Shown here in pieces: positions 32,267 to 37,800 of a DNA stretch of 64,000 nucleotides (its first letter is position 1; each line of letters opens with the position of its first letter). The translations under genes were made by a program, and so were the position numbers. This DNA is from Eremomyces bilateralis CBS 781.70. Lineage: Eukaryota. The DNA is taken from assembly GCA_010015585.1 (NCBI GenBank), contig ML975155.1, one strand, 5' to 3'. Below the pieces are notes generated by a model, which was not told the DNA's origin, searched no databases, and saw only the letters and a list, made by a program, of their open reading frames with translations.

Positions 32267-33728
32267 GTTGAAATGGGTTTCGAGGGGTGGAGGGATGAAA
32301 AGGAGAGAAAATCGAATGGATCTATTAAATCCATTGTTGCGGGCGGCATTGCAGCGGCAGGCATTTTATGGAGGTGACCGTGATGGAATTTGCATTGTAC
32401 AAAAGAGAATGAAGGTTGAAAGACGGAGCTGGAGGGAGTCGCCTCGGCGACATCGGTTAAATCATCATGATTCGTCCAACGCCCATTTCACCGCTCGACT
32501 TGCTAGTAGAGGATCATACACATGATGATTATTGTTCAAGACTGGCTTTCGCTTTGGGTTCTCTAGGAACGGGCACTCCGAGGTTGAGATGGGAGATGTC
32601 GCCGTAAGAGGCCAGACTTGGTGTTAACAGCAAGGGGACAATGGACAGGGAACACCAGCGAGATCGCATTCCTCTTTTATAATTATGCGCCCTATTGTTC
32701 TTGTCCGGCGATCGCCACGGTTTTCCAAAGAGTTCACAACTAGGACAATAGTAATCAGGCCAATCTTTCTCGGATATGGGTTCTTGCCACGTCAATTCAC
32801 CGTGAAGTTGGTGACGATATCTGGGCATACCCCGCCGAGGAAAGTCGGCATCGGATGGATAACCATCAAGGTCTCCTGCGAAAATCCACGGCTTTGACTT
32901 AGTTAGTCTCTGGCGTGGTTTGTTGGGTAAGACAGTTCCGGAGCCAGGAGGGGTTCATCAAAGAAATTAAAAATCCTATGAAAAAGGAAATGTGCATAGA
33001 CAGAGAAACTTAGAAGACTTACCAGTCACCTACGTCCACCTGGCATCGCGGGAGTGAAGCCCGTGCAATTCCAGTGACTCCGTTGACACCATCCACGTAT
33101 TCTGGGAAGAATTCATTATTACCGTATCCGGTTGGCGTTGGCGGGGTTGACTAGTTACTGGCCATGAGGTCACGCAGTCACGCTGCACTTTTGGACCAAT
33201 ATCTTAGTTACTCGTCACTCAGACACTCCTTCAACCACCAATCGTACAAGGCATCTCGCTCGTGCTACTGGAGTCGGTACGTACCGTGATTGTACTATCC
33301 TTATCCCAAAGACTCCTCCTCTTCCACTTTTCTTTTCTTTCTTTACCTACCACCGCACCTTAAGTACATATCCATCGTTGCCCTGATCAACTCCCTAGGT
33401 ACTCACCTACTGTCCGTGTCAGCTTTGTTCCGTCACCACCAGATTCATCCTTCGCTTCACGGCCGCTTCCCCGGATCGCAACTCCCAAGGCAATCTCCAC
33501 CTCCGTCAGACCACCACCCCGCCGATATCGACCACCGCTGCCAACCGATCGCTTGTAAATACCAACATTCGCTCGGATTTCCATTCTGCAGAAGCTTGTT
33601 ACCCTCTGCACTGAAGCATTTGTTAAGAGAAAGGGGACCAGTCCCGTATTCTTGCTGCGTCCCCTCCGCAGTTCCACGGACCCCCGCCGCCACCCCGTAT
33701 ATCGGAGCGAAAGCAAACAACCTACAAG

Positions 33729-34829
33729 ATGAGCAGTCCAAAGAGGAGAATTGAGACAGATGTACGTAGTTTGGTGCGAGATATTTTCGTTCCATATGCA
33801 GAAAGCTGACAATCATGTCTTTGTTCTTATTCAGGTCATGAAGTACGTTTATACACCTAGAGAGTTGCCAGAGGTCCAAATTAACCCGGTCGCAGGATGT
33901 ACGCACAATTATAGCACCACAACACGCGCTAGGGTATATACTAGAGGCGCATGGTCTAACTTTCATGATGTTATAGGTTGATGAGCGATTATGAGGTGAC
34001 ACTGGTGAACGACAACAGTATGTCCCTTACTATTGTTCATGGCAAACCCCCAGCAGACTAACATGTCATAGTGTACGTGCGAGCAGTCGGTCGACCACAA
34101 TGTTTATAGGACTCACGGTGTGACAGGCAAGAATTCTATGTCCGGTTCAAGGGGCCAAAAGAGAGTATGTGGCAAGAAACCTCCCTTACCCCAACTCGAC
34201 ATGCTAATCTTCCCCCACAGCACCATTCGAAGGCGGCCTCTGGAAGATACATGTTGAACTACCGGATCAATACCCCTACAAGAGTCCAAGTATTGGATTC
34301 GTGAACCGGATATTCCATCCCAACATCGATGAGTTGTATGGTCATGCCCTCCCAGAGTATTCTTTGGGGAATCTGTCCTCAATCTTTGCGTTCTTCCTCC
34401 CCTGTGAGCACAAAACTAACGGCATGTTCTCCGCCCAGATCCGGCTCCGTCTGCCTGGACGTTATCAACCAGACATGGTCTCCCATGTACGACATGATCA
34501 ACATCTTCGAAGTCTTCCTCCCCCAGCTCCTTCGTTACCCGAACCCAACCGACCCCCTAAACGGAGAAGCCGCGGCGTTGATGATGCGGGAACCCAAATC
34601 ATACGAGGCGAAGGTGAAGGGTAAGTGGGATGCTGCCTCCCGGTGTTAGCCGTGTTGACGGATTTCGGATCGTCCTGCTGACATTCCTGCAGAATACGTC
34701 CTCAAATACGCCTCGAGGGAAGCCGCTGATGACGCGGGCGAGGACAGCGAGGAAGAGGAAGAGATGAGTTCGGTTGGTAGCTACGAGTCCGGAGACGACG
34801 AGGAACCGGCCGGCAACATGGAGGTGTAG
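33729..34829 (+). CDS. UBC8: Ubiquitin-conjugating enzyme Ubc8 (UBE2H), 9 exons including 8-, 3- and 1-nt microexons
   Basis: Exons 33729-33761, 33835-33842, 33896-33898, 33977-34017, 34072, 34127-34164, 34221-34335, 34439-34620, 34693-34829 give [56 protein letters not shown].. plus an acidic tail. Confidence 0.93.
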
Positions 34830-37800
34830 AACGCGGCCTCGAAATTACGATGCACATTTCACAACGGTCCCATCCTCATTTTTTCCTTCCATTCGGCCAC
34901 TGCGCGTTATTTCCTCGTCCTCGGTGCTTGTTGGCGTATTTGAACCGCCGTGGCGAGGGACTACGATATCATCACATCAGCGGCGTACATGGCACCTGGG
35001 ACAACTGCTTTCCGTGAAGGGGTTTTCTCAGCACGATCACGTTCCGTCCTTTTTCTCCTTATGTTATTCGGTGACCGTGCGAGGGGTGATATGCGAGGGT
35101 GAATAGAGGGTGAATTGAAGTTGTTGAGGCTGAGTGGCCCGGGTGAGGAGTGCTGACATAGTGATGGGAATACGGGCCAGGAAGACATGTAATTGATCGA
35201 CCCAGCAGTACGGACGGTACATAGATCTGACAGGAATCAATACCACTTCATCTTCAGATGGTCTTTCGCTTCGTATTCGGACCCCGTGAAACCAATAGCT
35301 CTGCAAACGGCCGTTACATCCCGACGCTCCTGAGTCGACCCCCTTTTCTCTGCTGGAAGCAGTCTCTCCTTTTGTCTCTCCTTTTGCAGGCTGCAGCAGC
35401 TGTTTGGATCAGGACTCCAGAATGGGTTCGGTGCCTGCGGAGTTCGGCCCAACCATGAAGATGCCAAGAAGGCATTGAAGCAGCAGCGCAAGGTTCCTCA
35501 TCGTTTGGGAAGTTCCGGTATTAGGCCACGCAATCCGCATGAACCAGGGCTCGAGAATAACGAGATGCATGCCTGATGCAACCCATCCATCTGCAGTTTT
35601 TATCAAAGGTCCTCGTACGCCGGAACCTACCGGTGCCTACGTAAAAGGAGCATCCGTTTCGAGGTCGCGTTCGCGGATACCATGGAGATGAAGAAGGGCC
35701 GATGGCTACTCTATATCTACATTTTTCTCGACTGCTTGGCGTCTTGGCCATGCTGAGGGTTGCTCCATCCAGCCCTCATGAAACAGCAAGGTCGCGTAGA
35801 TATTATTTCGTACATCGTGCAGGGTTGCCACGTTCACCCCTTGCTCCACGGCGGCCAGGAAGGTGAGGGTAGAGGACAATTCACTATTGCTTACGACGAA
35901 AGACGATAATATCGATCGCAGTTTCAGAGATTGGTGTTCGATCTTGGGTTCCTGCGGACGATGCTCAACGAATATTGCAGTGTGGAGTTGTCAATTCCCT
36001 TCAATTTCTTGTGATACAGGATACTATGAGCAACTCGGTGGTTCGCAATCTGCGACGTGAAAGACGAGCATGATCCACGATCGAGATCAGAGCTTCTTGC
36101 CCATGTATCCGGTACCGAGATTTGATATGCACTCGTGGGCGTTGATCGTTGGATCGACTTCAGGGTCGATCTGCACGCGAAGTTTCAAGAGGCGATATAT
36201 ATTGATTATTAGCACTCACGGCATCAACAATTCCAACCTCCAACGTCCAAGAGATCAAACGATTCCCTGCGAGTTGCGACGGAGTCCAGATTAGAACCAT
36301 GAGATCTTCGACTCTCGGTTGGAAGCGAGATGCATTTCGGTTGCCATGCTCAAGGCTGAGATTGTGAGACATATCCACTGTTCAGACAAGCGGCATTCAG
36401 GGGTCACACCCTCGTTCAGAATTCATTACTTCATTCGCGCTCCCTGGCCACTTTAAAACACGGGATGACGGGATGAACGGGTCGGCAAGGAGACACAGGC
36501 CGAATGCGGAATGAGGACTGACTGAACACTGGAGAACAGAAGAAAACATGAGGAAGCTCTGGAGACTTCGACGCTTTTTCTAGAAGTCCCCATGGCACAC
36601 ATGACACATGGGTCTAGCCATCCGTCCGACAGCCTAGGGTGCAACTTGACTCATATACAACGAGCCTATGTATTCCCCACGGCCACGAATTCACGATGGA
36701 AGAGAAGTTACTCCGTAGAGAACGCATGAAAATTGACAAGGCATGGCCAAACCATCGGAGTCGTATAAAAGTCTAAAACTGCAACGCACAATATCTTTAA
36801 TGCATGCAGGCTGAGCGAGCTTTCAATCGTCTACCAAGTCTAATCCAACCTCCTCAGTACGATATCCCAATACCGGGGTTCCTGGGTTTCTTCTAATCCA
36901 ACCCGGCAGCAATCCTCCTCTTGGGCCTTGGCTCATTGCCATAGAAATTCCTCTAATACGTAGCGGTCTAGCATTATCATCATCGTCAGGTATGAAACCA
37001 CGAATGTCCGCCGTAGCCGTTCGCCTGATGCGCACGATGCCTAGCATCGGCGTAGCATCCAAATCGGTGCAGTCGACCGCGGTAGGCGCGTCGGCAGGGA
37101 GATTCTCGACTCCATCTTCAGTCCGGAAAGGCTAGGGGTTCCGCACGTTCCAGGGGGATCGAGACAGGGTTGCCGGGGCCATTCGCCCTTATTCACCATC
37201 GGTCACCCTGAACTGCTGGAGGCTGAGGCCAGAAAGGGATGATACAGTTTGCTCGGCTTGTGATATCGGACCGACGAATATCAAATGGTGGCTTGAACAG
37301 GCAATGTCCTGTAACGGACGGAAGGAGAAGTACTCCATTGCTGCGTCCATGGAAGAAAGCTAAGAGAGAACGCCAGGTTCAGGTCCAGTGTCCACAGATC
37401 GGTAGTTACTCGGTTCAGTTTTAGCCTTCGCCTTGAATCCCGTATTATTCTTGCCCATTGGCGACAACGTGGAAAACGTGGGTGGTGCCGGGAAGGATTC
37501 GTTACATGCAGCAGGGCGAGCCAATACAGAGGACTTAGCATTGGCCTGACTACAAGGGCCACGCCGTAGCGTGACCGTATCCAATCCGGATCCTAATGTG
37601 AGAACGCGAGAAGCTGTGACTGACCTTGATCGACAGTAGCGGGCGTTTGATCACTTGGATGTTCTTGGATGCGTGTCCAATTGCCCATCTATCTGTGGCA
37701 TAAGAGGGTCATTTGCTGGGGCTCCTTCGGATTCTTGGACACTGGAATTGGTATCTCTATTGCATCTTACCAACTCTCCTAAAGAGTCGAGAAACCCGAC

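Follow-up and report, generated by a model that had tools for sequence, protein, structure and literature searches.

Evidence for an exon of one nucleotide in the Ubc8/UBE2H gene of Eremomyces bilateralis

Results

The Ubc8/UBE2H locus

The window analysed here, a 64-kb stretch of DNA from Eremomyces bilateralis CBS 781.70 (contig ML975155.1), harbours a gene of nine exons (33, 8, 3, 41, 1, 38, 115, 182 and 137 nt) at positions 33729-34829 on the + strand. The gene product contains the UBC core, the HPN motif and the catalytic Cys of an E2. Yeast Ubc8 and human UBE2H are E2s working with the GID/CTLH ligase. Pfam UQ_con was matched by P0007 (E 9.6e-40), the deposited NCBI model of this gene, which is 99.4% identical to the nine-exon model, and also by single exons of the window. 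The best solved chains were human UBE2H (8pjn, 2z5d) and yeast Ubc8 (8pmq_E) with E about 1e-60 to 1e-72, and the next E2 subfamily, the Ubc13-like chains, followed at E about 1e-26. Judged by sequence similarity, the product is assigned to Ubc8/UBE2H rather than to other E2 subfamilies.

RNA evidence from the same organism came from one run, X1, kept as contigs and labelled 'RNA?'. The contig of 1637 nt (depth 1755.7) aligned to 33650-34900, running beyond the stop of exon 9, and was treated as transcript-derived because all eight introns were missing. It showed no differences from the genome except one letter in the piece 34123-34164. Contigs drop rare isoforms, and 'constitutive' refers below to the assembled form only. 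The features of the gene are as follows.

33729..33761, + strand: exon 1, 33 nt (gene model; RNA contig 33650-33763 without mismatch)
33762..33834, + strand: intron 1, 73 nt, GTACGT..CAG (gene model; skipped in RNA contig)
33835..33842, + strand: exon 2, 8-nt microexon GTCATGAA (RNA contig; conservation)
33843..33895, + strand: intron 2, 53 nt, GTACGT..CAG (gene model, RNA contig)
33896..33898, + strand: exon 3, 3-nt microexon GAT, gives the Met of ..VMKMLMSD.. (CATGAAGAT in RNA contig; conservation)
33899..33976, + strand: intron 3, 78 nt, GTACGC..TAG (gene model, RNA contig)
33977..34017, + strand: exon 4, 41 nt, ends with A, the first base of the Met codon (gene model, RNA contig)
34018..34071, + strand: intron 4 ('A'), 54 nt, phase 1, GTATGT..ACTAAC..TAG (signals; absent from RNA contig)
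34022..34027, + strand: weak alternative donor GTCCCT, adds Ser, used by P0007 (unused in RNA contig)
34072..34072, + strand: exon 5, single T, second base of the Met codon A-T-G (signals, RNA contig, conservation)
34073..34126, + strand: intron 5 ('B'), 54 nt, phase 2, GTACGT..ACTCAC..CAG (signals, RNA contig, orthologues)
34127..34164, + strand: exon 6, 38 nt, first base G, last base A (RNA contig piece ending at 34164)
34165..34220, + strand: intron 6, 56 nt, GTATGT..CAG (joint 34164>34221, GT..AG, in RNA contig)
34221..34335, + strand: exon 7, 115 nt, HPN motif region (gene model, RNA contig, Pfam UQ_con)
34336..34438, + strand: intron 7, 103 nt, GTATGG..CAG (joint 34335>34439, GT..AG, no letters between)
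34439..34620, + strand: exon 8, 182 nt, catalytic Cys in ..SGSVCLDV.. (gene model, RNA contig, Pfam)
34621..34692, + strand: intron 8, 72 nt, GTAAGT..CAG (joint 34619>34692, cut +1, in RNA contig)
34693..34829, + strand: coding part of exon 9, acidic tail, stop TAG 34827-34829 (gene model)

Between 33761 and 33977 the RNA contig read GT plus the nine letters CATGAAGAT, and the 8-nt exon 2 was conserved in 33 distinct sequences, window included. The preliminary gene model had no 3-nt exon at 33896-33898 upstream of T34072 and is corrected in this respect. Exon 4 was represented in the RNA contig by the piece 33977-34014 plus three letters fitting either side of the joint.

A single T between two complete introns

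Sequence inspection placed T34072 between two complete 54-nt introns on the + strand. The upstream one has the signals GTATGT (34018-34023), ACTAAC (34057-34062) and TAG (34069-34071), the downstream one GTACGT (34073-34078), ACTCAC (34111-34116) and CAG (34124-34126), and GCAAGAATTC starts at 34127, directly 3' of this last acceptor. Each intron thus possesses a donor, a branch-like motif and an acceptor at the usual length, and the base has AG and GT directly on either side (TAG/T/GTACGT, 34069-34078; slashes mark splice boundaries). With T34072 included the sequence reads ..AAC ATG CAA GAA TTC.., translated as N-M-Q-E-F, and when 34018-34126 was cut as one intron a 554-nt CDS resulted that was out of frame with early stops. 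The preliminary description had given the coordinates of both introns, their motifs and the T, the N-M-Q-E-F product and the frameshift; on re-reading of the sequence and on translation these were all found exact.

Within 34018-34126, position 34072 was the only AG-N-GY site. A composite pattern (donor, branch-like motif, YAG, one base, donor, branch-like motif, YAG) was scanned on both strands of the 64-kb window and matched once, at 34072, compared to a mean of 0.11 and a maximum of 1 when the window was simulated 100 times under a first-order Markov model.

A second in-frame solution exists at the locus: the acceptor at 34126 can be paired with the weak donor GTCCCT at 34022, which gives ..NDNSMQEF... 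If the deposited model P0007 were right, this single 105-nt intron, which is in frame and bounded by GT..AG, would be the true one, the product would read ..VNDNSMQEF.. and there would be no 1-nt exon. The extra Ser breaks the otherwise gap-free alignment to yeast Ubc8, whereas the spliced product ..VNDNMQEF.. aligns without gaps. Residues 1-178 of the transcript-type protein P0071 also align gap-free to yeast Ubc8 (8pmq_E), with LVNDNMQEF against LINDSMQEF; the yeast motif NDSMQEF, which the preliminary description had given, was in this way recovered from the PDB chain.

RNA of the same organism

Exactly 80 letters of the RNA contig (record positions 257-336) ran from 33977 to 34164. The T exon predicts 41+1+38 = 80 letters, the P0007 annotation 83 and a single intron 79, and the junction AACAGTATGCAAG needed for the 105-nt intron is therefore contradicted, which together with the evidence from protein models given below leaves the deposited reading very improbable. 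On ACAG (34123-34126) the aligner had placed ACA and one further letter ('both = 3', 1 other letter). Because of this count of three and the one mismatch on ACAG, the extra letter is not G, and we infer a T from the total length, the lone mismatch and the fact that AG/T/GT occurs only once in the interval. The mature mRNA of the window's organism includes T34072, with the identity of the letter drawn from these three observations. The transcript check for T inclusion that the preliminary description had proposed therefore came out in favour of the exon.

With the T retained, the mature junction reads ..AACATGCAAG.., i.e. ..GACAACATGCAAGAA... The junction readings competing with the T form are AACAGTATGCAAG, AACAGCAAG and AACAGGCAAG.

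The length of 80 letters would also be obtained by removal of one intron 34018-34125 with a non-canonical acceptor, G34126 being kept and the product reading ..N-R-Q.. (AAC AGG CAA). With G34126 kept (AACAGGCAAG), however, ACAG at 34123-34126 would match fully, with four letters fitting both sides, where three and one mismatch were observed, and orthologous cDNA-like contigs read ATG and not AGG. This reading is hardly credible. A stwintron, where one intron lies nested within a splice signal of another and both are excised without leaving a base, deserves mention since stwintrons are known in Pezizomycotina and likewise need two consecutive splicing reactions. Nested excision would leave 79 letters and a frameshift, but the RNA contig has 80, and neither G/GT..AG/T nor a frame-restoring interrupted acceptor fits the sequence, so that a stwintron is extremely unlikely here.

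Conservation across Pezizomycotina

Eighty metagenomic orthologous loci were fetched, and 75 could be scored. The arrangement A/GT..AG/T/GT..AG/G was kept in 58 of the 75, representing 47 distinct sequences with otherwise diverged intron bodies, while plain ATG was found in 16/75 and a single intron in 1/75. The introns of these metagenomic orthologues measured 46-87 nt (A) and 50-95 nt (B). All cDNA-like contigs read ATG (9/9). Seven genomic loci of the metagenomic set lacked both introns and one lacked the downstream intron alone. The alignment of genomic UBC8 loci that the preliminary description had called for thus revealed AG-T-GT to be widely kept.

The cDNA-like contig L019 reads ..GACAATATGCAGGAG.. 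at the Met codon, and the genomic locus L031, which is 97-100% identical to it, reads ..GACAATA/GTAAGT..TTCAG/T/GTATGT..AAATAG/GCAGGAG... Hence AATATGCAG in L019 stands opposite the A, intron, T, intron and G of L031. This cDNA/genomic pair demonstrates that the T is spliced into mRNA in another fungus.

Locus taxon labels were accepted only from matches of >= 97% over >= 90% of the query. C-terminal parts of double-intron loci matched, at 99-100% identity, named proteins from Fusarium oxysporum (L063), Thermoascus aurantiacus (L070), Cenococcum (L020), Alternaria (L041, L046) and a Mollisiaceae sp. (L031). Going by identity over about 105 residues in a conserved protein, such double-intron loci are assignable to Dothideomycetes, Eurotiomycetes, Sordariomycetes and Leotiomycetes. 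Best-hit labels from a first round had been too loose, many at 70-90% identity, and were dropped.

Might the T exon act as a regulated switch, as the preliminary description had suggested? Skipping of the T (34018 to 34126) would then give a frameshifted, NMD-sensitive mRNA that sets the level of the GID-ligase E2. For such skipping two good sites are at hand; the intron would measure 109 nt, in a gene that tolerates the 103-nt intron 7, and early stops would be created. The downstream donor is moreover weak in many cases: position +3 is a pyrimidine in 22/48 distinct sequences versus 6/48 for the upstream donor (Fisher p = 0.0006). Against a switch, the T was present in the organism's own contig and in 9/9 cDNA-like contigs, in which rare forms are hidden, and the loss of both introns in seven genomic loci and of the downstream one in another marks the arrangement as dispensable. 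No half-spliced or T-skipped forms were seen in the X1 contig or the cDNA-like contigs, sources in which rare forms remain concealed. A conserved structure was not predicted either; the RNA of 34000-34145 folded less well than its shuffles (z = +2.29), is no more stable than chance and offers no structural explanation. A role as regulated switch is accordingly regarded as unlikely.

Public gene models at the Met codon

Among 248 NCBI genome-derived models only 11 were correct at the Met codon and 237 were not, in agreement with the earlier expectation that gene predictors would miss the exon. The 105-nt solution of P0007 is not isolated, as the same S-x-QEF reading occurred in 18/248 models, with x the residue predicted from the donor hexamer. 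The residue x varied with this hexamer (M, T, K, E, R, G, Q, A), which marks S-x-QEF as a predictor workaround and not a conserved residue. Among the short-contig proteins (JGI, Logan, ENA) containing the upstream exon, 35/37 had M-QEF without the extra Ser. Ten further footprints were translations straight through both introns, such as ..LQCMQ.. in Aspergillus niger P0144 and ..HQCMP.. in Fusarium P0265, where Q-C is expected because of CAG/T/GT. Both intron boundaries are visible only in S-x-QEF (18 models) and in full read-throughs (10 models). Footprints of the types 'M + T-codon' (30 models) and 'S...V-QEF' are each compatible with a single intron and were not counted.

Discussion

The best explanation of the locus may be depicted as follows: T34072 is, with high confidence, a genuine and constitutively included 1-nt exon of the Ubc8/UBE2H gene. 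The claim of the preliminary description that this exon is needed to make Ubc8 was upheld by the organism's own RNA contig, the L019/L031 pair and the 58/75 loci. The phase-1 intron 34018-34071 and the phase-2 intron 34073-34126 are each removed, and the T between them stays in the mRNA, at the centre of the Met codon. Each intron is presumably recognised alone by intron definition, as is usual for fungal introns of about 55 nt. The downstream donor is no more than about 16 nt away from the branch-like motif (34057-34062) and the acceptor of the upstream intron; with this short spacing two spliceosomes at once are unlikely, and removal is therefore probably sequential. The simplest order would be removal of the upstream intron first, as the RNA is made, an order akin to that at a recursive splice site, except that one base is retained. 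The role of the T exon is frame keeping, and nothing further is demonstrated.

The double-intron arrangement is old. Loci assignable to four classes of Pezizomycotina still have it, and in some lineages it has been lost, with both introns gone or the downstream one alone. Combining the observations, one might picture an ancient splicing ratchet in which the weak downstream donor fixes the order of intron removal and skipping, through NMD, tunes the E2; this joint reading is speculative and probably does not hold. If true, the ancestor shared by Dothideo-, Eurotio-, Sordario- and Leotiomycetes already had the arrangement, and loss of one intron would lead to an apparent 1-nt 'sliding' without a stwintron intermediate. 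Lineages in which one or both introns are lost form a natural series for intron loss and apparent sliding.

The occurrence of a 1-nt exon beside 3-nt and 8-nt exons in one short gene shows that spliceosomes working by intron definition can do with essentially no exon sequence. The arrangement apparently occurs in genetically tractable fungi, making the removal order and the cost of skipping directly testable. UBC8 is a conserved housekeeping gene, and models of it err by adding residues, by leaving out an exon of 13 residues or by truncating the N-terminus. Faulty models occur in Aspergillus, Penicillium, Fusarium, Alternaria and others, and phylogeny, structure prediction and proteomics with deposited UBC8 proteins inherit these errors.

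Comparison with known systems

A recursive splice site is an acceptor followed at once by a donor: splicing takes out the upstream part first and then proceeds from the donor so regenerated. Such sites keep no base and serve very long introns, whereas UBC8 keeps one base between introns of 54 nt. T34072 is not classed as a recursive splice site, since one base lies between acceptor and donor and is retained. Nor is it placed in the stwintron class, since the base is kept and nested removal frameshifts. Stwintrons and the 1-nt intron shift were described by Fekete et al. 2017 (PMC5587772), and have in common with UBC8 that they occur in Pezizomycotina, involve consecutive splicing reactions and place introns at positions one base apart. 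The UBC8 introns are in contrast adjacent and not nested, no splice signal is interrupted, and both positions are occupied at once, a simultaneous occupancy kept in loci assignable to four classes. Loss of one intron, as in locus L035, would mimic a 1-nt shift without a stwintron.

The preliminary description had called 1-nt exons very rarely described, which is fair, although at least three reports exist (Arabidopsis, Fusarium, Coprinopsis). The 1-nt exon in APC11 of Arabidopsis (Guo and Liu 2015, PMC4674806) is, like that of UBC8, one base between AG and GT inside an annotated intron, the reading frame depends on it, and the APC11 cDNA in GenBank was mis-annotated. The base is A in a 422-nt annotated intron, compared to T between introns of about 54 nt in UBC8, and two rice paralogs are without an intron whereas the UBC8 arrangement is kept in loci assignable to four fungal classes. 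The exon of the Fusarium P450 CYP621A (Nelson and Syed 2026, PMC12940212) was claimed as the second 1-nt exon overall and the first fungal one. Like UBC8 it is fungal, has AG-N-GT between two short introns, was confirmed by public RNA reads and is wrong in nearly all deposited models. It is reported for 20-24 orthologs of one genus, with the base G (AGGGT), and is rarely expressed, whereas the UBC8 exon lies in a highly covered housekeeping gene and is far more widespread. The UBC8 double intron was also found in Fusarium (L063; P0265, P0272). The long-read annotation of the basidiomycete Coprinopsis cinerea (PMC12230235) lists 13 gene models with a 1-nt exon and, like the UBC8 case, indicates that fungal spliceosomes handle such exons; the sections consulted give counts without a conservation analysis. 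A search of the available text of PMC5639578 found no 1-nt exons, and a printed description of the UBC8 exon was not found in the open-access literature, a scope that is no proof of absence. Single-nucleotide exons were thus already known, and the UBC8 case is a new and unusually widespread instance.

Structure of the UBC8 gene and the exon at T34072

The UBC8 gene consists of nine exons (33, 8, 3, 41, 1, 38, 115, 182 and 137 nt) encoding a product of 185 aa in which the UBC core domain was found by Pfam. The closest solved relatives were human UBE2H (8pjn, 2z5d) and yeast Ubc8 (8pmq_E), with E-values of ~1e-60 to 1e-72, and the next E2 subfamily followed at E ~1e-26. The single-nucleotide exon, T34072, is real and lies in the following arrangement, read in the sequence.

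Splice site features around T34072
to 34017, + strand: end of the upstream exon, ..GTG AAC GAC AAC A
34018-34023, 34057-34062 and 34069-34071, + strand: signals of intron A (GTATGT, ACTAAC, TAG)
34072, + strand: one-nucleotide exon T, between two complete putative introns
34073-34078, 34111-34116 and 34124-34126, + strand: signals of intron B (GTACGT, ACTCAC, CAG)
from 34127, + strand: downstream exon, G CAA GAA TTC

The positions assigned in the preliminary description to donors, branch-like motifs, acceptors and the T were all exact on re-reading. Introns A and B are 54 nt each; the remaining short introns of the gene measure 53-78 nt, one of 103 nt excepted. Keeping T34072 restores the frame (..N-M-Q-E-F..), and splicing in silico bore out the earlier claim that removal of 34018-34126 as one intron loses it, giving a 554-nt CDS with early stops. 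Inside 34018-34126, AG-N-GY occurs at one site only, 34072. The composite pattern of donor, branch-like motif, YAG, one base, donor, branch-like motif and YAG occurred once in the 64-kb window with both strands scanned, the chance expectation being a mean of 0.11 per window and a maximum of 1 (100 first-order Markov simulations).

No RNA structure was predicted for 34000-34145 by folding against shuffles (z = +2.29); 199 of 200 shuffled sequences form a more stable fold than this segment does, of which open splice signals may be the simple cause. On the minus strand, opposite the 5′ part of UBC8, a 189-codon stop-to-stop open frame occupies 33457-34026.

RNA evidence from the same organism

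The locus was found in one public run, X1, which consists of assembled contigs whose RNA type is a tool's guess. A 1637-nt contig (depth 1755.7) covers 33650-34900 with a single differing letter and lacks every intron, and is therefore transcript-derived. Between 33977 and 34164 it holds 80 letters (record positions 257-336), as predicted with the 1-nt exon (41 + 1 + 38); the prediction is 79 for a single intron and 83 for the deposited model. In the spliced RNA introns A and B are gone, and the intervening T stays.

The aligner had placed ACA and one more letter on ACAG 34123-34126. It counted three letters that could belong to either side of the joint, and exactly one differing letter in that piece. 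Had the extra letter been G, four letters would fit both sides with zero mismatch; it is therefore not G, which excludes a non-canonical single intron leaving G34126. The letter itself is not printed, and we infer T because the AG/T/GT site is unique and the orthologues read T.

The deposited NCBI model P0007, named for Eremomyces bilateralis CBS 781.70 (a Dothideomycete by lineage lookup), offers another solution, absent from the preliminary description. It splices from GTCCCT at 34022, a weak donor, into the acceptor at 34126, stays in frame and gives ..NDNSMQEF.., and from the DNA alone neither model could be preferred; its 83 letters, however, disagree with the 80 of the RNA contig, and the Ser-containing product is not collinear with yeast Ubc8, whereas the product of the 1-nt exon is. 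The proposed likeness to the yeast motif held in the transcript-type orthologue P0071, gap-free against yeast Ubc8 over residues 1-178 (LVNDNMQEF against LINDSMQEF). P0007, set against 33977-34829, is marked partial (171 aa); it begins at exon 4, so that exons 1-3 are absent, and it also lacks the 1-nt exon. Its identity to our model is 99.4%, the extra Ser apart.

The same RNA contig contains the letters CATGAAGAT between 33763 and 33977, and two further microexons are therefore real.

Further microexons, proven by CATGAAGAT in the RNA contig
33835-33842, + strand: 8-nt exon GTCATGAA
33896-33898, + strand: 3-nt exon GAT

They are a 53-nt intron apart. The GAT exon, missing from the preliminary description, changes the protein from ..VMKLMSD.. 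to ..VMKMLMSD... Among the best 80 of 469 matches the pair is kept in 33 distinct sequences, window included, and is fused to one 11-nt exon in 6 further ones.

Orthologous loci and taxonomic spread

A scan of metagenome contigs with the 60-aa exon 8 gave 469 confirmed matches. The best 80 were taken as loci, and 75 of these were scorable, both flanking exons being found. The conserved AG-T-GT sought there was present, as A/GT..AG/T/GT..AG/G at the Met codon, in 58 of these 75 loci (47 distinct sequences); 16 had a plain ATG, and in one, L035, the phase-1 intron was the sole one left, with TG directly after it. Loss of one of two introns 1 nt apart would mimic a 1-nt intron shift between species. 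The intron bodies of the double-intron loci are otherwise diverged, with lengths, window counted, of 46-87 nt for intron A (median 56.5) and 50-95 nt for intron B (median 58); locus L007 allows two AG/T/GT parses.

Nine of the 16 ATG loci have an uninterrupted, cDNA-like CDS. The other seven (L025, L033, L036, L039, L055, L071, L075) retain later introns and are therefore genomic DNA, from lineages in which introns A and B have both been lost. The cDNA-like locus L019 is 97-100% identical, exon by exon, to the genomic loci L031 and L030; it reads ..GACAATATGCAGGAG.. where L031 has ..GACAATA/GTAAGT..TTCAG/T/GTATGT..AAATAG/GCAGGAG... This is an independent, letter-level confirmation of the T exon in another fungus.

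C-terminal parts (105-106 aa, variable acidic tail included) of loci with the double intron match named proteins closely, which gives approximate labels.

Named proteins matched by these loci, with identity
L063: Fusarium oxysporum, 100%
L070: Thermoascus aurantiacus, 100%
L020: Cenococcum geophilum, 100%
L041, L046: Alternaria alternata, 100%
L076: a Dothideomycetes sp., 100%
L019, L030, L031: a Mollisiaceae sp., 99.1%

By these approximate labels the double-intron arrangement appears to occur in Dothideomycetes, Eurotiomycetes, Sordariomycetes and Leotiomycetes; the lineages of Mollisiaceae and Thermoascus were checked, and L063 is placed by the class of Fusarium.

Misreadings in public gene models

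The claim that gene predictors miss the exon was examined in 248 NCBI genome-derived models from three protein searches, each representing a 90% cluster, and only 11 were correct at the Met codon.

Readings after ..VNDN in 248 models
M-QEF (correct): 11
upstream exon absent from the model: 77
S.., running into intron A: 43
M and a codon starting with T: 30
S-x-QEF: 18
KFYV, cryptic acceptor within the next exon: 18
TPF, T and 38-nt exon skipped: 11
straight translation through both introns: 10
other readings: 30

The Neurospora crassa model P0327 also scored M under a looser pattern. M-QEF was read in 35 of the 37 short-contig proteins (JGI, Logan or ENA) having the upstream exon.

In S-x-QEF, found in Aspergillus flavus, Talaromyces, Coccidioides, Claviceps, Epichloe, Drepanopeziza, Coniochaeta and Sodiomyces among others, x is M, T, K, E, R, G, Q or A, the exact outcome when a predictor takes the GT at the end of the hexamer GTnnGT as donor and joins it to the acceptor before G-CAA; each such gene therefore has a donor in phase 1 together with an acceptor in phase 2. 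Read-through models show Q-C, the expected translation of CAG/T/GT (Aspergillus niger P0144, ..LQCMQ..; Fusarium P0265, P0273 and P0311, ..QCM..; Parastagonospora P0116, ..LQCP..). The footprints 'M + T-codon' and 'S...V' were not counted as proof because each fits one intron.

T and the 38-nt exon make 39 nt, and their joint skipping, seen as ..VNDN-TPF.. in the 11 models, keeps the frame with 13 residues lost.

Splicing order and the proposed switch

Intron definition is usual for introns of ~55 nt, and introns A and B would each be recognised in this way. The branch-like motif at 34057-34062 and the acceptor of intron A lie within ~16 nt of donor B, whose U1-binding region overlaps the acceptor AG. 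Such crowding makes simultaneous assembly unlikely, so removal should be sequential. Upstream-first removal during RNA synthesis would be the simplest order and would also help to keep donor A from joining acceptor B. Among distinct sequences from the best 80 of 469 matches, window included, a pyrimidine at +3 was found in 22/48 for donor B and 6/48 for donor A (Fisher p = 0.0006); this weaker donor B may hint at the order, the window's own (GTACGT) being a good donor.

A possible NMD switch acting through the T exon, proposed earlier for this E2 of the GID ligase, finds no support: no T-less form occurred among the contigs examined, in which rare forms would be hidden, and one or both introns are lost in 8 loci (best 80 of 469 matches).

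Comparison with known systems

No published description of the UBC8 1-nt exon was found in the open-access literature. Such exons are already known: one in Arabidopsis APC11 (PMC4674806), one in Fusarium CYP621A, called by its authors the second overall and the first fungal (2026 paper, PMC12940212), and those of 13 Coprinopsis cinerea gene models (PMC12230235).

Fusarium, the genus of the CYP621A exon, has the UBC8 T exon as well; along 105 aa L063 is 100% identical to a protein of F. oxysporum, and translation through ..CAG/T/GT.. is found in several models from the genus (among P0265, P0272, P0273, P0280, P0311 and P0314).

A stwintron is ruled out: its introns are nested, whereas introns A and B are adjacent with one base kept between them. 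A recursive splice site is likewise ruled out by the retained base; the T exon probably works like one. Among 1-nt exons that of UBC8 is notable for its breadth, with loci assignable to four classes, for its place in a well-expressed housekeeping gene together with 3-nt and 8-nt exons, and for the near-universal misannotation that results from it.
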